DNA of 4,116 nt from a virus (Duplodnaviria > Heunggongvirae > Uroviricota > Caudoviricetes): the IMG/VR virus record IMGVR_UViG_2698536449_000007; one strand, 5' to 3'. The position numbers and the translations under genes were made by a program. The notes under the pieces are model-generated. The model saw only the letters and a program-made list of their open reading frames with translations, had not been told where the DNA came from and ran no database searches. Shown one piece after another: positions 1 through 4,116 of this stretch (position 1 is the stretch's first letter; every line of letters starts with the position of its first letter).

Positions 1-339
1 ATGGTAGTGTCCGCTATTGCCAGTACACCTCAATTGCTCTGCGGCTTCGCTCAGAGCTGGCGTATGTTCCCGGCCTACTGATTCACACAGGTAATCAACG
101 AAACCGGACACCAGTTTTCGTTCGCGAGGCGTGATCGCCCCACCGACCGGAGTCCAGTAATCGAATCCCAGTTGCAGGAGTTTGAAAAAACGCTTGTGGA
201 ATGCGTAGTTACACACACGCTTAAAGTCTGCGTGTATCCACTCACCTATTTTGATTTGATGCAGAAAATCGCAACTCTCCGGCGTCGCCGGGAGAAGTAA
301 TCCGGAAGAGGTTTGTTTGACCAGTTGTATATGTGCCAT
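1..339 (-). CDS. Partial CDS (N-terminal 113 codons; 3' end runs off the window start); hypothetical prophage protein
   Basis: Minus-strand ATG at 339-337 preceded by GGAGAAAG at 7-nt spacing. The frame stays open for 113 codons to the window edge (MAHIQLVKQTSSGLLLPATPESCDF...). Absent from the supplied ORF track because no stop lies inside the window. No family recognised by eye. Confidence 0.5.
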   Translation of the reverse strand, partial: MAHIQLVKQTSSGLLLPATPESCDFLHQIKIGEWIHADFKRVCNYAFHKRFFKLLQLGFDYWTPVGGAITPRERKLVSGFVDYLCESVGREHTPALSEAAEQLRCTGNSGHYH

Positions 340-377
340 CGGCTTTCTCCGGTGGCACGGTGTTACACAGCAGGAGT

Positions 378-665
378 TCAATCCTGCTCAAGATTGTAGA
401 TGAGTTTATTCTTCAGCAAAAGCAGAAAACCAGCCTTAAAACCAATCTCTTTCAAAACCCGTAATGATGTGACAAATTCGTCCTCACGCAAAATAAAACC
501 GTCCGTCAGAAGTCCATTACAAAAATAAAATAACACAGCACCGCTCTTCCTTTGTTGAGATTGCAAACATCTAATGCGGCAATGGCTGACAATCGCTCCA
601 TTCTCAACGCGCACAGCATAGAGGCCATTTTCACTAAAAATTTCACGCAATTCTTCGATTTTCAT
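378..665 (-). CDS. Hypothetical small protein (95 aa), function unknown
   Basis: ATG at 665-663 with AGGA about 8 nt upstream; 95 codons to TGA at 380-378. No recognisable catalytic or structural motif. A promoter-like element lies about 75 nt upstream. Confidence 0.45.
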   Translation of the reverse strand: MKIEELREIFSENGLYAVRVENGAIVSHCRIRCLQSQQRKSGAVLFYFCNGLLTDGFILREDEFVTSLRVLKEIGFKAGFLLLLKNKLIYNLEQD

Positions 666-746
666 CTTCAGAATCCTTCCAGATAAATAGCTCTCCCCTG
701 TTCGGGGTCCATCCCTCTTCTCCCTGCGCGCTACTTAAGTGAGTCG

Positions 747-774
747 ATTCTATCTGCGAAGGTGCGCGAATCAA
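747..774 (-). promoter_or_regulatory. Candidate sigma70-type promoter for the 95-aa ORF
   Basis: On the minus strand: TTGATT (774-769), 16-nt spacer, TAGAAT (752-747). Predicted start near 740. Hexamer match only, no experimental support. Confidence 0.3.
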
Positions 775-786
775 ATTCACCGGAAA

Positions 787-839
787 TAAACAACAAAAAA
801 CCCGCCGAAACGCTGAGAGATCACAGCGATGGGCGGGTT
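787..839 (-). terminator. Rho-independent terminator at the 3' end of the hok transcript
   Basis: In minus-strand RNA the stem CCCGCC (837-832) pairs with GGCGGG (806-801), with additional inner CGCTG/CAGCG pairing (811-815 with 824-828), followed immediately by UUUUUUGUUGUUU (800-787). Lies about 80-130 nt downstream of the hok stop. Confidence 0.55.
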
Positions 840-841
840 AA

Positions 842-858
842 GTGCGGGTGCGTTGAGG
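842..858 (-). promoter_or_regulatory. fbi-like 3' element of hok mRNA (complementary to the 5' tac-like segment at 1229-1244)
   Basis: Plus 842-858 (GTGCGGGTGCGTTGAGG) matches the reverse complement of plus 1229-1244 over 15 positions with one bulged base. In a single minus-strand transcript these two segments can pair, bringing the 3' end onto the predicted 5' end. Confidence 0.4.
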
Positions 859-878
859 ATGCCTGACACATCAGAGGT

Positions 879-906
879 GGGCGGGGATGGGATCAGCTCC
901 CCGCCC
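879..906 (-). other. Stable GC hairpin in hok 3' UTR
   Basis: GGGCGGGG (879-886) and CCCCGCCC (899-906) form a perfect 8-bp GC stem with a 12-nt loop, beginning 9 nt downstream of the hok stop codon. Confidence 0.4.
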
Positions 907-914
907 GGTCACTC

Positions 915-1070
915 TTACTTCCTGGATTCGTAGTCTACGAAGACAGCGACCTCCGTCTGGCCGGTTCGGATTCGTACCTCACAGAGGTCTTTCCTCGTTA
1001 CCAGTGCCGTCACTATGACGGTTAAACAGATGACGATCAGGGCGATTAACATCGCCTTTTGCTGCTTCAT
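915..1070 (-). CDS. hok: Hok/Gef-family type I toxin (51 aa, membrane-depolarising peptide)
   Basis: ORF MKQQKAMLIALIVICLTVIVTALVTRKDLCEVRIRTGQTEVAVFVDYESRK. Basic N-terminus, single hydrophobic helix (LIALIVICLTVIVTALV), then the TRKDLCEVR and EVAVF...YES-type C-terminal signature of Hok/Gef peptides. AGGAG lies 9 nt upstream of the ATG (1070-1068); stop TAA at 917-915. Confidence 0.85.
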   Translation of the reverse strand: MKQQKAMLIALIVICLTVIVTALVTRKDLCEVRIRTGQTEVAVFVDYESRK

Positions 1071-1127
1071 AGCCTGCTTCTCCTTGCCTTTCGGCATGTA
1101 AGAGGCTAACCTACATGTGCAAAGCAT
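915..1127 (-). CDS. mok: mok-like leader reading frame (in-frame N-terminal extension covering hok)
   Basis: ATG at 1127-1125 with GAGG about 8 nt upstream; encodes MLCTCRLASYMPKGKEKQA followed by the Hok sequence in the same frame. Matches the organisation of chromosomal mok/hok pairs, where mok translation is needed for hok translation. Confidence 0.5.
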   Translation of the reverse strand: MLCTCRLASYMPKGKEKQAMKQQKAMLIALIVICLTVIVTALVTRKDLCEVRIRTGQTEVAVFVDYESRK

Positions 1128-1178
1128 GAAATTGGCCTCAGATTAATGTTAAGCGTCTTGCCGGACGCGTAATGTTAA
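1112..1178 (+). ncRNA. sok: Candidate sok-type antisense RNA (boundaries approximate)
   Basis: Positional inference only. A plus-strand antisense transcript is expected to cover the mok SD and start (1125-1140). Possible -35 TTGCCT (1084-1089) and -10 TAACCT (1106-1111); a 5-bp hairpin at 1153-1168 (GCGTC/GACGC) is followed by a weakly U-rich tract. Both signals are weak. Confidence 0.22.
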
Positions 1179-1246
1179 CTGGGGCTTTTCTCTATCTGCC
1201 TTTTGGTGTTCATGCCTGAAGCAGATAGCCTCAAGCACCCGCAGTC

Positions 1247-1276
1247 ATTCTACTTACCTCGCCAATATGAAATCAA
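1247..1276 (-). promoter_or_regulatory. Candidate promoter of the hok/mok transcript
   Basis: Minus strand TTGATT (1276-1271), 18-nt spacer, TAGAAT (1252-1247). Predicted start near 1240, coinciding with the tac-like segment 1229-1244 that is complementary to 842-858. Implies an mRNA of about 450 nt ending at the 787-839 terminator. Confidence 0.4.
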
Positions 1277-1297
1277 TCAGAAAGGTGCCCCATAAAA

Positions 1298-1984
1298 TCA
1301 CTCCTTCTCTTCTTTACCGTAGTGGAGTTGACCAATTTTGATAAGAGGGCGTCCCTGAGATTTGCGGTGTAGATTGGTATCGCGCAGAGAATACACACAG
1401 CCACAATATTCCTGCTGATAGAATTTTTCGCGCTTGCTGATTTCAATCATACGGGACGAGCCGCCCTGCTTGCGCCAGTTATAATCCCAGTACACCATGC
1501 CCGGATAATGCGCGACGGCTCGCCGCCCACAGTCGTTAACCTGCTGCATATTTTTCCAGCGTGAAATGCCCAGTGAACTGCTGATCACACTGAAACCATT
1601 TTCAGCGGCGTACAGCGCTGTCCGCTCAAAACGCATGTCAAAACACATGGTGCAACGGATCCCTCGTTCGGGCTCCCATTCCATTCCTTTGGCTCGTTCA
1701 AACCAGTTGTCTGTGTCGTAATCAGCATCAATAAACGGCACGCCGTGTTGTTCAGCAAAGCGAATATTCTCATCCTTACGAATTAAATACTCTTTCTGAG
1801 GATGAATGTTCGGGTTGTAGAAAAAGATGGTGTAGTCGATTCCCGAGGCCTGAAGCGCCTCCATCACCTCACCGGAACATGGAGCACAGCAAGAGTGCAG
1901 TAGTAGTTTGTTTGCCCCGTTTGGGAGCTCCAATTTGGGCCGTTTGAAATCAGCAACTGTCATAAATATGTTTATTGGGGTCAT
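1298..1984 (-). CDS. queH: Epoxyqueuosine reductase QueH (DUF208 family; final step of queuosine tRNA modification)
   Basis: Hallmark QueH motifs read directly from the translation: [11 protein letters not shown] near the N-terminus, [18 protein letters not shown], and YCGCVYS near the C-terminus; 228 codons is a typical length. Start is ambiguous (ATG 1984 or in-frame ATG 1963); neither has a strong SD. Confidence 0.85.
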
Positions 1985-2045
1985 AAAAATATCAAAGAGT
2001 GTAGCATTAGAACGGGGCTATCGGAAACAGATGTGTGACTGCTCC

Positions 2046-2089
2046 CCGCCCTTTCGGGTGGTCTCCTGATGATTTGAGGGTGCAGAAAT
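2046..2089. repeat. 44-bp direct repeat, copy A (43/44 identical to 3807-3850)
   Basis: CCGCCCTTTCGGGTGGTCTCCTGATGATTTGAGGGTGCAGAAAT. Contains a 6-bp stem with a TTTC/GAAA tetraloop. Lies about 60 nt 5' of queH on the coding strand. Flanking sequence is unrelated to copy B apart from a CCGG a few nt downstream. Confidence 0.9.
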
Positions 2090-2093
2090 ATCC

Positions 2094-2115
2094 GGGGTTT
2101 TTGTTTGTTAACCCC
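2094..2115 (-). other. Hairpin between the DUF551 gene and repeat A (possible weak terminator or processing site)
   Basis: GGGGTT (2094-2099) pairs with AACCCC (2110-2115) around a 10-nt loop. On the minus strand it is followed by GGAUAUUUCU, only weakly U-rich. Confidence 0.2.
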
Positions 2116-2187
2116 AACGGCAAATCGAATACACCACCAGCGCCACCGCCATCGCAATTCCTACCGTGGTGAATGCCTCAGGCCAGG

Positions 2188-2553
2188 TCATTGATTCACC
2201 TCCTGCGGTGGTTCCGGTAGCGGCATCCAGTGAGTTGAGCTCTCTACTTCAACGCCGTCTTTGTCCACAAAAGCCATCTTATTCCCGCCACGAGTGGGGC
2301 AAAAAACCTTATCCCAGGAACCGGGGAATACATTCCCGAGATCATCGAGAAGAATCACATCGCAATATTCAGCAGGAACTGCATCACTACAGCTTATCCA
2401 GCCAGCCGGAGCTACCGGAGAGTTGCCAGCCTTACGCATGGCCATTTCCACGATTTCAACCATATCTCCTGGTGGAATTTTACAAAGTTGCCCAATACAT
2501 TTCTGCTGCCTGGCATATTCGAGAATGTGCTCCAGTTTGGTTCGATTAATCAT
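2188..2553 (-). CDS. DUF551-like phage protein (121 aa)
   Basis: C-terminal region carries the W-I-S...VP...VILL and THWMPLPEPP pattern that I recognise as typical of DUF551 prophage proteins. Start ATG (2553-2551) overlaps the stop of the upstream gene (TAATG); GGGAG lies 7 nt upstream. Confidence 0.6.
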   Translation of the reverse strand: MINRTKLEHILEYARQQKCIGQLCKIPPGDMVEIVEMAMRKAGNSPVAPAGWISCSDAVPAEYCDVILLDDLGNVFPGSWDKVFCPTRGGNKMAFVDKDGVEVESSTHWMPLPEPPQEVNQ

Positions 2554-3218
2554 TATTTATCTCCCTTAAGCATGGCAGCGCGGCAGGCGTTCCAGCCATC
2601 AACATAATCAAACGTATTACTATCGTTTGGCCCGATTTCATCCGGCACTATCGGCTCTGGTTGGATAGTGACGTTGGCAAAGGCAGCACGCAAACCGGTT
2701 TTAATTTCTTCGATTTCATCAGAGCCAAGCGATGAATCTGACAGTGCGTGATGGAATGCGTAAGCCATGTCGTCGTTTACTGCAACCGGCACTGCCGGCG
2801 CTGCGTAAAGCGGTGTTATATCTGCCCGAAAATCACATGCTTTATGCAGTCGTACCCAACACTCAACTTCCGCTTTGTCAAAATATATAGCAGTGAACGT
2901 ATTAGATTCCTGGTCAACTTGAGTAAACGTCACCTTCCACGCTACAGCTACGGCTTTCCATCCATCAGGTTGTCGCATTCGCGGGGCAGCATAAAGCTCA
3001 TGCATTCCATCAGGCAGCGAGTGACCCACATACTCACCGAACCCGTCAATACACATGCCCCCATCTTCAACAATGCATTCCGCTACAGGCTCTGCTTCCA
3101 GTGATGCCAGAGCGATAAGCGCCAGTTCACGAATTTCACCGCCGTCTATATCGTCAATATCATCGCGGCCAGAAATGTTAGCCAGCCATTGCAGTCGCTC
3201 TTTGGTAATAGTGGTCAT
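2553..3218 (-). CDS. Hypothetical acidic protein (221 aa) with internal duplicated LYAAP motif
   Basis: Start ATG (3218-3216) overlaps the HNH stop as ATGA. About 39 D/E versus about 17 K/R residues (counted by hand; net charge around -20). Two copies of an (E/P)LYAAP segment about 60 residues apart. No catalytic motif recognised. Confidence 0.55.
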   Translation of the reverse strand: MTTITKERLQWLANISGRDDIDDIDGGEIRELALIALASLEAEPVAECIVEDGGMCIDGFGEYVGHSLPDGMHELYAAPRMRQPDGWKAVAVAWKVTFTQVDQESNTFTAIYFDKAEVECWVRLHKACDFRADITPLYAAPAVPVAVNDDMAYAFHHALSDSSLGSDEIEEIKTGLRAAFANVTIQPEPIVPDEIGPNDSNTFDYVDGWNACRAAMLKGDK

Positions 3219-3580
3219 GCCGTAGCCCCTTCTTGATATTTTTCAAACCAGAACACAACCGGGTCAGATTTCATTTCAACCAATCCCATACGAACCAGCG
3301 CTTTGCCTTTCCCGGACGCAAGGAATTCACGACGACCATCACTGATAATTCGTCGATAATCTTCCAGGCTACTGCAATGCTTGTGCAGATTGCATGGGTG
3401 GCATGCTGGTACCATGTTGGATATATCGTCACGTTCCTGGTGAAGCATATTTCCATCAAAACGAATGACCGGTTTTACATGGTCTGCATGCCACTTTTCG
3501 CCAAGTTCGCAGCCGCAATAAGCGCAGCGACCACCGAACTTCATGCGCAGTTCTGCACGTTGTTTTTTCGTCAGTGCCAT
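3215..3580 (-). CDS. HNH endonuclease (about 121 aa)
   Basis: Canonical HNH core: CAYCG...HADHVKP...N...ACHPCNLHK (two CxxC pairs flanking the H-N-H catalytic residues). Start taken as ATG 3580-3578 (MALTKKQ...) with AGGAAAG 8 nt upstream. The ORF-track start at 3670 is a TTG in the same frame and would overlap the upstream small ORF. Confidence 0.8.
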   Translation of the reverse strand: MALTKKQRAELRMKFGGRCAYCGCELGEKWHADHVKPVIRFDGNMLHQERDDISNMVPACHPCNLHKHCSSLEDYRRIISDGRREFLASGKGKALVRMGLVEMKSDPVVFWFEKYQEGATA

Positions 3581-3581
3581 A

Positions 3582-3800
3582 TCAGCTTTCCTTATACGGA
3601 TTAATTTTATTGTGCAGTGTGTTGAATGACGCCCATACCACGTCGTTATACAATTCAATAACTGGCTCAATTATTTTTCCGATTATCCAGACAAAAATTA
3701 GCGGGGATATCGGTGTCATCAACACGATAAACAGAATGAGAAACAGGAATTCTGTTGTTCTACTCTTTCGCGGATATTTTTTTCTAAATAATGTAACCAT
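3582..3800 (-). CDS. Small putative membrane protein (72 aa)
   Basis: ATG 3800-3798; basic N-terminus (RKKYPRKSR) followed by a hydrophobic segment FLFLILFIVLMTPISPLIFVWIIGKII consistent with one TM helix. Stop TGA (3584-3582) is 1 nt from the HNH ATG, suggesting coupling. No family recognised; AT-rich, so a chance ORF cannot be excluded. Confidence 0.45.
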   Translation of the reverse strand: MVTLFRKKYPRKSRTTEFLFLILFIVLMTPISPLIFVWIIGKIIEPVIELYNDVVWASFNTLHNKINPYKES

Positions 3801-3806
3801 TCATTA

Positions 3807-3850
3807 CCGCCCTTTCGGGCGGTCTCCTGATGATTTGAGGGTGCAGAAAT
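3807..3850. repeat. 44-bp direct repeat, copy B (43/44 identical to 2046-2089)
   Basis: CCGCCCTTTCGGGCGGTCTCCTGATGATTTGAGGGTGCAGAAAT. Perfect 6-bp stem with tetraloop (CCGCCC-TTTC-GGGCGG) and a second stem GAGGG-N9-CCCTC completed by the following CCCTC. Ends 6 nt upstream of the small-ORF ATG on the coding strand. Confidence 0.9.
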
Positions 3851-3892
3851 CCCTCCGGTTAAGGATTAAATTTTTAACAGTGCTAAATTTAA

Positions 3893-4114
3893 TTATTCAG
3901 TTCTGGATTTTGTCGCCCTGCGTATCCGCGCTTTCGCGTTACGCTCAATCTGTATCAGCTTTTCTATATTTCTCCGCCTTTCCTGTTCCTCCTGGCGCAA
4001 TAGCCTTACATCATCTGCCAGTCTGGTTTCTCTTTTTGCCACAGAGAGCATCCAGTCAAACGGCTCCACAACCGCACCGCAGATTTTACAGCGGACCTGA
4101 CGCTCTTTTTCGTC
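3893..4114 (-). CDS. Partial CDS, C-terminal 73 codons of a hypothetical protein (5' end outside window)
   Basis: Open frame from the window edge to TAA at 3895-3893: ...DEKERQVRCKICGAVVEPFDWMLSVAKRETRLADDVRLLRQEEQERRRNIEKLIQIERNAKARIRRATKSRTE. Contains a CxxC pair and a charged, probably helical tail. It could instead be a short ORF starting at the internal ATG (4051-4049). Confidence 0.35.
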   Translation of the reverse strand, partial: DEKERQVRCKICGAVVEPFDWMLSVAKRETRLADDVRLLRQEEQERRRNIEKLIQIERNAKARIRRATKSRTE

Positions 4115-4116
4115 AA

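Follow-up and report, generated by a model that had tools for sequence, protein, structure and literature searches.

Small genes that are packed on one strand and framed by direct repeats raise the question whether they represent a functional unit that is carried as a cassette or whether they were brought together as independent pieces of a mosaic prophage. This question is posed by a window of 4,116 nt, i.e., the whole stretch of DNA analyzed here, which belongs to the Caudoviricetes record IMGVR_UViG_2698536449_000007 of IMG/VR. In an initial annotation, made from the letters of the window, a block of four genes encoding a small membrane protein, an HNH nuclease, an acidic protein and a DUF551 protein was proposed to be a candidate accessory or defence/anti-defence cassette bracketed by 44-bp repeats.

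Layout of the gene block

The four tightly packed minus-strand ORFs, encoding in gene order the DUF4014 protein, the HNH nuclease, the acidic 221-aa protein and the DUF551 protein, were reproduced in their coordinates (Table 1) and in their junctions, i.e., TGA-t-ATG between the DUF4014 stop and the HNH start, an ATGA overlap between the HNH and the 221-aa gene and a TAATG overlap between the 221-aa and the DUF551 gene. Plausible Shine-Dalgarno sequences are present ahead of each start in the block (AAGGA, GAAGGGG, AGGGAG). The HNH start is the ATG at 3580; a TTG upstream of it is only the start given in the ORF list. Regarding the single operon that had been proposed, the common strand and the translational coupling at the junctions stand and support one transcription unit, and the block genes are probably co-transcribed within a long early transcript. 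A scan revealed neither a promoter-like site in the intergenic element (IG) upstream of DUF4014 nor a terminator-like site in the four-gene block. The translational coupling is probably present because phage operons pack their genes in this way, and not through the formation of a system. Next to the four genes there is a fifth coupled ORF of 27 aa, pep27, which had been overlooked.

Table 1. Features of the 4,116-nt window, with positions counted from its first letter.
Feature	Position	Strand	Basis or remark
QueH (epoxyqueuosine reductase family), allele A	1298..1984	-	PF02677, 220 bits
Repeat copy 2, distal 44 bp of the IG of the QueH allele	2046..2089		A-allele SNP (CCACCC)
Blunt non-homologous junction, allele B (2090-4116) / allele A (1-2089)	2089..2090		
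Remnant 5' arm of the allele B intrinsic terminator hairpin (CAAAAACCCCGGA+T)	2090..2107	-	loop, 3' arm and T-run missing
27-aa hydrophobic ORF, pep27 (MTWPEAFTTVGIAMAVALVVYSICRWG)	2108..2191	-	ATGA overlap with the DUF551 stop; not in the ORF list
DUF551 protein, 121 aa	2188..2553	-	PF04448, 69.9 bits; phrog_924
Acidic 221-aa protein	2553..3218	-	four-segment patchwork shared with Ead/Ea22-like and DUF551-domain proteins
Stand-alone HNH nuclease, 121 aa	3215..3580	-	PF01844; phrog_2118; zinc-ribbon HNH core and family-specific helical C-terminal half
DUF4014 small single-pass membrane protein, 72 aa	3582..3800	-	PF13198, 90 bits; phrog_1832; hydropathy
Conserved 92-bp intergenic element (IG)	3801..3892	-	hairpin, AGGAGA, GNRA hairpin, TAATGA
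Repeat copy 1, native part of the IG upstream of DUF4014	3807..3850		
3' part of a conserved hypothetical gene (phrog_1621 family; full length 118-137 aa), running past the window end	3893..4116	-	

Distribution of the genes and the genomic slot

A neighborhood analysis spoke against the four-gene cassette, as no co-occurrence of the four genes was found outside near-identical copies in E. coli and Shigella. All four genes are found together in none of the 23 viral contigs with an HNH protein below 70% identity, in none of the 22 with 70-97% identity and in 7 of 30 contigs even with an HNH protein of at least 98% identity, the latter residing beside DUF4014 proteins of 85-100% identity. HNH loci in other species lack the remaining three genes, except for one partial 221-aa and one weak DUF551 match, and clustering of the neighbors at 27 of such loci yielded no recurrent adjacent HNH partner family. 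Across 5,426 E. coli genomes DUF4014 occurs in 1,012 and HNH in 385, this 221-aa gene and this DUF551 allele occur in two each and the whole block in two, i.e., the frequencies of the block genes differ approximately 500-fold. DUF4014 and HNH stand side by side in 26 of 31 E. coli-type contigs and, in reversed order, in 2 of 25 distant contigs, and a functional link between them may exist. Judged from this distribution, each block gene would be a separate module.

The block is located in a variable slot. The left flank is formed by the phrog_1621 gene, which is conserved and common to the two alleles A and B described below, followed by the 92-bp IG; the usual right flank is the 27-aa ORF followed by hok/sok, in allele B with an intrinsic terminator in between. 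pep27 is the conserved right end of the slot: its start overlaps whatever gene stands before it, and its 3' end together with the adjoining terminator arm (2090-2150) is present in approximately 1,200 E. coli genomes. Between these flanks the gene sets vary by prophage, and alternative contents were seen in other genomes. The slot belongs to the rightward early operon and lies between DnaC-like/DUF977 genes and the hok/sok, rem, DUF1367, YbcO and Q-antiterminator genes. As an example, E. coli FDAARGOS_944 carries the block at 99.8% identity between DUF977/DnaC-like genes and hok, DUF1367, DUF1364, DUF1133 (Q-like), tRNAs and lysis genes, and the same flanks surround the Shigella and E. coli block copies. 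In the Stx phage ArgO145, the location is the PL exo-xis region, next to Ead/Ea22 near int. IS elements near some block copies are unrelated insertions.

The position in the early operon, co-oriented with the core modules, and the sharp identity breaks at gene boundaries between otherwise near-identical phages, as seen for alleles A and B, place the region in the lambdoid accessory mosaic, and the phage accessory gene content assumed initially is supported by this context in E. coli/Shigella prophages. Most probably, the region is nothing out of the ordinary: it comes from the hypervariable accessory slot of a Rac-like lambdoid prophage in E. coli/Shigella, with independently shuffled genes and with the repeat as the scar of a join.

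A hybrid of two alleles and the origin of the 44-bp repeat

The repeat itself is real. The direct repeats 2046-2089 and 3807-3850 are identical in 43 of 44 positions, and a chance match of such a length is impossible in 4 kb. They delimit no unit: in its natural form, allele B has the repeat only once and closes with an intrinsic terminator. Allele B, with the order IG-DUF4014-HNH-221-DUF551-pep27-hok, was found in 14 IMG/VR contigs, each with one repeat copy only, and allele A, with the order IG-QueH-hok-rem, in 18 IMG/VR contigs. Positions 2090-4116 of the window represent allele B (IG-DUF4014-HNH-221-DUF551-pep27-terminator-hok) without a mismatch in 2,027 nt to L006, L010, L016 and L028, and positions 1-2089 represent allele A (IG-QueH-hok-rem) at 99.95% identity, i.e., with one mismatch in 2,089 nt to L011 and L014; repeat copy 2 carries the SNP of the allele A contigs. 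The window is a hybrid: inside the terminator hairpin of allele B the sequence switches to allele A, which sets in with the last 44 bp of its own IG.

The edges of repeat copy 2 are a blunt break inside a hairpin on the left and the point of divergence of A and B on the right. Past CCCCGGAT, allele B continues with TGATGGTCCGGGGTTTTT forming a 13-bp hairpin, for which the scan reports a terminator-like site on the opposite strand and which on the gene strand has a GC-rich core directly followed by TTTTT. In the window, the IG sequence ATTTCTGCACCC replaces the remainder of this terminator past CCCCGGAT. QueH now lies downstream of the block without an intervening terminator, and the terminator loss would let transcription continue into QueH. 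The truncated hairpin abutting the second repeat copy had escaped the initial annotation. The direct repeat exists because both alleles carry the upstream IG; the join of two sequences sharing this upstream element occurred out of register and the 44-bp repeat is therefore its by-product. The repeats were also considered as att, attC or target-site-duplication ends, which was rejected due to the natural allele B with a single copy and the different origin of the two repeat edges. Pfam and PHROG profile searches of the window ORFs identified no integrase or transposase domain.

A different explanation for the two copies would be that the 44-bp segment functions as an RNA element, be it as a leader hairpin that includes a Shine-Dalgarno sequence, as a site of processing or as a signal for antitermination; two copies would then be kept for the control of DUF4014 and QueH. 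On the gene strand, the IG consists of a hairpin GAGGG-ATTTCTGCA-CCCTC, the sequence AGGAGA (plus-strand positions 3823-3828), a GNRA hairpin CCGCCC-GAAA-GGGCGG (plus-strand positions 3807-3822) and TAATGA, followed by the DUF4014 ATG. It is present in 1,965 of the 5,426 E. coli genomes, annotated in none of them, and is kept upstream of at least three unrelated genes. Phage ArgO145 keeps the GNRA hairpin by a C-to-T change resulting in a G-U pair, and with the hairpin formed AGGAG is placed approximately 7 nt from the DUF4014 start. However, copy 2 and L032 bear changes that break one stem pair, the hairpin is approximately 60 nt away from the start codon before QueH, and the element is absent from the DUF4014 genes of Salmonella phages. 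The fold z-score is merely -2.5, and Rfam yields no match in the IG or the repeat, its only match in the window being sok at 1065-1240. Moreover, each gene just retains its native leader so that two copies require no selection, making this explanation unlikely compared to the repeat as a by-product of the join.

The acidic, DUF551 and small membrane proteins

The 221-aa protein is strongly acidic (pI 4.34; 39 D/E versus 17 K/R residues) and its segments are 80-94% identical to DUF551-domain and Ead/Ea22-like proteins. A Pfam search gave no match for this protein and the DUF551 domain itself is absent from it; its AlphaFold2 model (pLDDT 52) is too poor for a structure search, and a PDB sequence search returned nothing for the 221-aa and the DUF551 proteins. 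A role of the 221-aa protein as a DNA mimic or in anti-restriction would be a candidate. The literature search on DUF551 led to papers on Ea22 and YfdS only. Ea22 genes were described as mosaic and DUF551 as a portable domain (PMC10834534). Both proteins probably belong to this Ea22/Ead/DUF551 mosaic family, the lambda member of which biases the lysis-lysogeny decision.

The DUF4014 protein has one hydrophobic segment (residues 19-37, Kyte-Doolittle mean 2.68), preceded by six K/R residues. Its homologues in Salmonella phages (51-53% identity) are named 'acetyltransferase inhibitor' solely by similarity to epsilon15; a literature search on the basis of the epsilon15 name gave nothing usable, and no literature on DUF4014 was found. 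The pep27 ORF has a strong Shine-Dalgarno sequence, AGGAGGTG, and differs from the diverged L071 copy in four synonymous and zero non-synonymous positions. The DUF4014 protein and pep27 are likely to be small membrane proteins.

The HNH nuclease and its possible role

The assignment as a compact HNH nuclease holds: the protein scores 28.2 bits against PF01844 (cut-off 21.4) and is a member of the superfamily, and the DUF551 assignment of the initial annotation is likewise confirmed by the HMM search (Table 1). The residues C19, C22, H31, D33, H34, N55, C60, C63, N64 and K67 are invariant across 48 homologues. Foldseek with the AlphaFold2 model (pLDDT 90) against the PDB returned generic HNH cores only, at E-values of 0.02 or worse, and a PDB sequence search 4h9d alone (E 0.058). 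The protein is probably an active DNA nuclease, non-specific or structure-selective, of a prophage-restricted family, and its likeliest roles would be selfish (homing-like) or in recombination/DNA processing. It was correctly noted before that no terminase is adjacent: none is found in the window, and Q-like, tRNA and lysis genes intervene in a near-identical chromosomal copy. As a terminase cofactor the HNH protein is ruled out by context, with Q-like, tRNA, holin, lysozyme and DUF4406 genes standing before the terminase genes in L001.

A homing-type role would offer another origin for the local mosaicism and perhaps for the junction. As a free-standing endonuclease, the HNH protein would cut HNH-less prophage alleles and spread by recombinational repair, dragging its flanks along, so that these would be its footprint. 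Copies of the gene that are 97-100% identical occur in several neighborhoods, i.e., after DUF4014 and after an unrelated 136-aa gene, and in PL exo-xis as well as in PR nin-like regions. At 100% protein identity it stands beside DUF4014 proteins of only 85-88%, a pattern that a mobile gene would leave if its co-conversion tracts are short; the 48-homologue alignment shows the catalytic residues to be intact, and both hybrid breakpoints are at the 5' stem/loop boundary of hairpins. However, ordinary lambdoid mosaicism predicts the same distribution, the HNH-less alleles seen carry other genes at this place instead of what would be a clean empty site, and profile and structure searches revealed no recognisable sequence-specific DNA-binding module in the HNH protein. 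Homing is therefore a doubtful explanation, on a par with the RNA element.

A possible chimeric assembly or a possible single defence system

The hybrid junction, represented by a 33-mer, is absent from IMG/VR and the JGI metagenomes, and no complete E. coli genome spans it; the event is therefore documented by this single sequence only. Among ten places listed for the exact DUF551 protein all are allele B, and among ten listed for the exact QueH protein none has an upstream DUF551. Both alleles are co-resident in at least four genomes (IMG 2713897141, 2537561618, 2874915312 and 2681813268), each of which yields a contig of A plus a contig or stretch of B. This absence, the presence of both parental alleles in the same genomes and the blunt join would fit an artificial chimera, made from two co-resident prophages during sequencing or assembly, as the source of repeat copy 2 and of the B/A junction. 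Such an artifact is nevertheless very improbable. No k-mer is common to the two sides of the junction, so that a graph assembler has no path unless reads contain the junction; a mis-join via the common 310-bp flank would swap alleles at the repeat and not duplicate 44 bp, and strand and gene order are the same on both sides.

In temperate phages, exclusion and anti-defence genes are known to reside in hypervariable regions of the early operon. The block lies in such a hypervariable prophage region, its genes are coupled and co-oriented, and the whole block is present at 98-100% identity in many Shigella and E. coli genomes. Moreover, the HNH core resembles those of PtuB, Cap5 and Cas9. The block could hence be read as one functional defence, anti-defence or superinfection-exclusion system, in which a membrane protein, a nuclease and acidic partners are carried as a cassette. 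PADLOC and NCBIfam, used to search for known defence systems, gave sub-threshold hits to the HNH core only, the best PADLOC match being PtuB with 31.6 bits and TIGR02646 reaching 21.8 versus 52 bits. For the defence/anti-defence cassette suggested at the outset, no signature beyond a generic HNH core without a partner gene was found: a PtuA-like partner is absent, and neither PADLOC nor NCBIfam matches any of the remaining three proteins. As the co-occurrence is restricted to near-identical copies it reflects recent common descent; the approximately 500-fold spread in the frequencies of the genes and the repeats not being cassette ends also speak against a system, which we consider very unlikely. 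Another very improbable idea is that hairpins in related prophage DNA are cut by the HNH protein, alone or with DUF4014, as an active nuclease of a selfish or exclusion type; it would drive cassette shuffling in lambdoid hypervariable slots and would have left the blunt junction as its direct footprint.

Significance of the hybrid

The window shows ordinary lambdoid mosaicism, and its importance is limited mostly to annotation. A false lead is removed because the repeats mark neither a mobile nor a functional cassette. Furthermore, the hybrid is a base-resolved example of how a lambdoid mosaic is formed, with both parental alleles in public data at approximately 100% identity: a blunt out-of-register join deletes a terminator and puts two accessory modules into a single transcription unit. 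The HNH family, DUF4014, the DUF551/Ea22-like patchwork proteins and the 27-aa ORF are very common in E. coli/Shigella prophages, so that an assay-based function of any of them would apply widely.

Comparison with known systems

In the predicted structure, the beta-beta-alpha-metal core of PtuB (Septu/retron), CBASS Cap5 and the Cas9/IscB HNH domains superposes on the block HNH with Foldseek probabilities of 0.9-0.97, TM scores of 0.37-0.47 and E-values of 0.02 or worse, and weak HMM matches to these proteins cover residues 6-80. However, the sensor or partner domain or gene is absent from the block, and all scores are far under the family cut-offs (for IscB 23.8 versus 175 bits).

The T4 Mob proteins and I-HmuI, free-standing HNH homing endonucleases of phages, share with the block HNH that they are small HNH ORFs whose place among the conserved genes varies from one related phage to the next, whereas no DNA-binding module was recognised in the block HNH and the HNH-less alleles seen carry other genes instead of what would be a clean empty site. 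With the terminase-associated HNH proteins of cos phages, of the HK97 gp74 type, it shares being a small stand-alone phage HNH protein but is not located beside terminase or portal genes.

Closer in location is lambda NinG/Rap (PF05766), an HNH-like branched-DNA endonuclease of the nin region, which has a zinc-ribbon HNH-type core and lies in the same operon region. The Pfam similarity is weak (E 0.0024), and some homologues of the block HNH have a precomputed PF05766 hit. With 18.2 bits against a threshold of 25.4 the block HNH itself falls outside PF05766; of its 121 aa a match is found only to profile positions 93-147 of 193, and its C-terminal half is family-specific.

Finally, the region as a whole resembles the lambdoid nin (PR) and exo-xis/'ea' (PL) regions: in Rac-like prophages it lies with the replication genes on one side and Q on the other, its small ORFs are packed with overlaps, and its proteins are mosaic segment by segment (PMC10834534). 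Lambdoid mosaics were proposed to arise both by illegitimate joining and by exchange that uses short conserved flanks, and the joints seen here fit both of these processes (PMC2327257). The window differs from these regions only by its gene combination and by the unique out-of-register join, by which 44 bp were duplicated and a terminator was removed.

Gene organization

All genes of the window are carried on the minus strand (see table). Four of them, encoding DUF4014, an HNH nuclease, a 221-aa protein and a DUF551 protein (the block), are coupled by TGAtATG, ATGA and TAATG junctions as described in the initial annotation, and a fourth junction, again ATGA, connects DUF551 to a 27-aa ORF absent from its list. 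A Shine-Dalgarno-like sequence is present at every start of the coupled genes. The further features it reported are also real: DUF4014 is a predicted small membrane protein with a basic N-terminus followed by one strongly hydrophobic segment, the 221-aa protein is acidic (pI 4.34) and a direct repeat is present (43/44 identical). Reading them as a cassette or system bracketed by repeats is, however, not supported.

Features of the window and their coordinates
Feature	Coordinates	Strand	Remarks
phrog_1621-family conserved hypothetical gene	4116-3893	minus	3' part
Intergenic element	3892-3801		92 bp
DUF4014	3800-3582	minus	72 aa
HNH nuclease	3580-3215	minus	121 aa from ATG at 3580
Acidic protein	3218-2553	minus	221 aa
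DUF551 protein	2553-2188	minus	121 aa
27-aa ORF	2191-2108	minus	
Intergenic element, second copy	2089-2046		44 bp of the element
QueH	1984-1298	minus	PF02677, 220 bits
mok/hok with sok	1127-915	minus	Rfam sok at 1065-1240
Rem-like gene	665-378	minus	
DUF1367 gene	downstream of Rem-like gene	minus	start only

Genomic setting

A stretch of E. coli FDAARGOS_944 inside a Rac-like prophage matches the block with 99.8% identity; there, a YdaT/YdaU, DnaC-like and DUF977 replication module lies upstream and hok, DUF1367, DUF1364, a Q-like DUF1133 gene, tRNAs and lysis genes lie downstream. The index places the exact DUF551 protein in thousands of assemblies; the matches listed share this context and are heavily interrupted by IS elements. 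A shorter DUF4014-HNH-115 aa version is located in the leftward operon of Stx phage ArgO145, adjoining Ead/Ea22-like genes near int. Because of these three contexts the region is assigned to the accessory portion of lambdoid early operons, of nin-like or exo-xis-like type. NCBI lists the block proteins under Shigella sonnei, S. flexneri and E. coli.

IS1 and IS3-family elements flank or cut many Shigella copies of the region. One IMG/VR stretch of the block type (L027, 2874915312_000003) has ~770 bp inserted after the first codons of DUF4014 (about 1470-2270), and the sequence past the insertion point begins GGTAATGACT, resembling the end of IS1. Enterobacterial prophage sequence of this region is also found in three records (L044, L047, L070) and in phage record PP818812.1, labeled Actinomadura, Lachnospiraceae MAG, Segatella copri MAG and 'Actinobacillus phage vB_Apl-pPE4', labels which probably reflect contamination or mis-assigned hosts.

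Distribution of the block genes

In megablast searches of 5,426 E. coli genomes (a gene was counted when at least 80% of it was present; any match for the intergenic element), the intergenic element was found in 1,965 genomes, the DUF4014 gene in 1,012 and the HNH gene in 385; the 221-aa gene of the window, its DUF551 allele and the whole block were each found in 2. In fragmentary form, the 221-aa gene is present in 246 genomes and the DUF551 allele in 765. In other genomes the slot contains DUF4014-DUF551; Ea22-like, hypothetical, 136 aa, HNH, 205 aa; DUF4014, 88 aa, DUF551 fragments; DUF4014, 88 aa, 56 aa, 115 aa; or DUF4014, HNH, 115 aa.

Co-occurrence was furthermore assessed around HNH in 80 viral contigs, binned by HNH identity to the window. 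At 98% identity or above, all four genes were present in 7 of 30 contigs and DUF4014 was nearby in 26 of 31, at 85-100% identity. The corresponding counts were 0/22 and 0/23 at 70-97%, and 0/23 and 2/25 below 70%, both of the latter DUF4014 genes lying downstream, i.e., in reversed order. Among 36 HNH loci of species-representative genomes the block was restricted to E. coli and Shigella representatives, and clustering the neighbors in 27 of these loci revealed no recurrent partner family beside HNH, the sole regularity being that HNH tends to sit downstream of phage replication genes. E. coli counts, viral contigs and representative loci alike speak against the proposal that the four genes form one cassette, their homologs being scattered outside this locus, which the initial annotation gave as its refuting outcome. 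Judged by these sequence comparisons, the block is not a unit beyond recent common descent.

Two alleles and a hybrid junction

Scanning IMG/VR with the repeat core resulted in 32 stretches of two architectures, alternative contents of one hypervariable slot in Rac-like E. coli/Shigella prophages, with the phrog_1621 gene and the intergenic element common to both. In allele A (18 stretches) the intergenic element leads directly to QueH, hok and rem. In allele B (14 stretches plus FDAARGOS_944) it is followed by DUF4014, HNH, 221 aa, DUF551, the 27-aa ORF and a hok allele different from that of allele A. Allele B has a single repeat copy and, past the 27-aa ORF, a 13-bp perfect hairpin, CAAAAACCCCGGA-TTGATGG-TCCGGGGTTTTTG, called terminator-like by the scan on the opposite strand and having TTTTT directly 3' of its GC-rich core on the gene strand.

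In nucleotide comparisons, window 2090-4116 corresponds to allele B (0 mismatches in 2,027 nt; stretches L006, L010, L016, L028) and window 1-2089 to allele A (1 mismatch in 2,089 nt; L011, L014). Read on the gene strand, the junction is ...AAAAACCCCGGAT/ATTTCTGCACCC..., without shared bases: the allele B side ends one base inside the terminator loop and the allele A side begins at the first loop base of GAGGG-ATTTCTGCA-CCCTC, the other hairpin of the intergenic element. Repeat copy 2 has the CCACCC variant, as in allele A contigs. The two edges of the 44-bp repeat are therefore unrelated, one being the illegitimate breakpoint and the other the A/B divergence after the common leader. The repeat is a scar, not a site.

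Junction-spanning sequence was absent from E. coli complete genomes, the junction 33-mer was not found in IMG/VR or JGI metagenomes, and the exact DUF551 and QueH proteins, among the matches listed, occur in plain B or A and in no hybrid. The join could be an assembly chimera, which is unlikely because no k-mer is common to its two sides. Four IMG genomes contributed both an A and a B stretch; therefore, the two parental alleles do meet in one cell. Since the join destroyed the allele B terminator, transcription of the block should now run on into QueH.

Both breakpoints (window 2089-2103 and 3842-3855) lie where the 5' stem of a hairpin meets its loop, in the allele B terminator hairpin and in the GAGGG/CCCTC hairpin, respectively, which is perhaps a sign of hairpin-stimulated breakage or template switching.

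The 27-aa ORF, the DUF4014 leader and QueH

The 27-aa hydrophobic ORF (MTWPEAFTTVGIAMAVALVVYSICRWG) has a strong Shine-Dalgarno sequence (AGGAGGTG) as well as its overlap with the preceding stop, shows synonymous changes only compared to a diverged copy and comes after whichever gene closes the variable slot. About 1,200 E. coli genomes contain its 3' end together with the terminator arm next to it. The ORF has the look of a genuine gene for a small membrane protein that annotations usually miss.

The DUF4014 leader (3801-3850, gene strand) consists of AGGAGA, a 16-nt GNRA hairpin CCGCCC-GAAA-GGGCGG, TAATGA and the DUF4014 ATG. Formation of the hairpin would bring the Shine-Dalgarno sequence within normal distance of the start codon, similar to the split ribosome-binding sites known from T4. 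The intergenic element is never annotated among the 1,965 E. coli genomes carrying it.

The prophage-borne QueH (epoxyqueuosine reductase family) is the content of the alternative allele; record accessions returned include CP000038.1 and CP000036.1, presumably Shigella sonnei and S. boydii genomes. As E. coli normally uses QueG, this phage-carried non-orthologous enzyme of tRNA queuosine maturation is an odd cargo. A literature search on QueH with prophage returned nothing relevant. Just downstream (915-1240, minus) the mok/hok toxin gene (PF01848) is complete and the sok antitoxin RNA is a full-length RF01794 match (117 bits).

Block proteins

The HNH protein is a member of a prophage family with ~700 proteins (115-140 aa), none of which bears a name more specific than 'HNH endonuclease'. 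As two CxxC pairs, H31, D33-H34, N55, N64 and K67 are invariant in 48 homologs, catalytic competence is probable. Structure prediction resulted in a confident AlphaFold2 model (pLDDT 90), which matches nothing but the generic HNH cores of Cas9, Cap5, Gme HNH, McrA and PtuB (E 0.02 or worse, TM 0.47 or lower), the helical C-terminal half being family-specific; the NinG model is matched below threshold. In PADLOC and NCBIfam the HNH core alone matched and no partner gene was found. A selfish or DNA-processing nuclease is tentatively favored over a defense effector.

In a Shigella sonnei protein of 194 aa (NCBI; P0002) DUF4014 and HNH are fused in frame, presumably after the TGAtATG junction acquired an indel. 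At its 3' end the HNH gene has 48-51 nt (window 3215-3265, minus), encoding ...VVFWFEKYQEGATA and the beginning of the following gene, that recur with 98-100% identity under different 'hypothetical' genes in other E. coli genomes; the same peptide also ends distant HNH subfamilies. This stretch looks like a conserved joint for module exchange.

DUF4014 homologs of Salmonella phages g341c and P6, located in P22-type ea regions, bear the name 'acetyltransferase inhibitor', which for g341c derives from similarity to an epsilon15 annotation; the g341c region also contains an HNH fusion gene. No literature on DUF4014 was found.

The 221-aa protein has no Pfam match, and its predicted structure (pLDDT 52) was too poor for a fold search. 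It consists of four segments (about 1-45, 46-80, 85-140 and 142-221), each recurring with 80-94% identity in different DUF551-domain, Ead/Ea22-like or hypothetical prophage proteins. The last segment ends with GWNACRAAML, which in longer relatives is followed by a linker and a DUF551 domain.

Probable module exchange and comparison with known systems

Everything in the window is of a known kind and already annotated in RefSeq. Most likely, the block genes are early-operon accessory modules that assort independently and are expressed together because a single long transcript carries them all. The left side with its conserved intergenic element and the right side with the 27-aa ORF and hok/sok (and, in allele B, a terminator) are short shared flanks of the kind that permits module exchange by homologous recombination. 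The 2089/2090 join exemplifies illegitimate recombination, the second route proposed; the two have been discussed together (PMC2327257). A mosaic behavior like that of the 221-aa protein is described for Ea22, which has acidic C-terminal domains and in lambda favors lysogeny, and DUF551 was termed a portable domain (PMC10834534).
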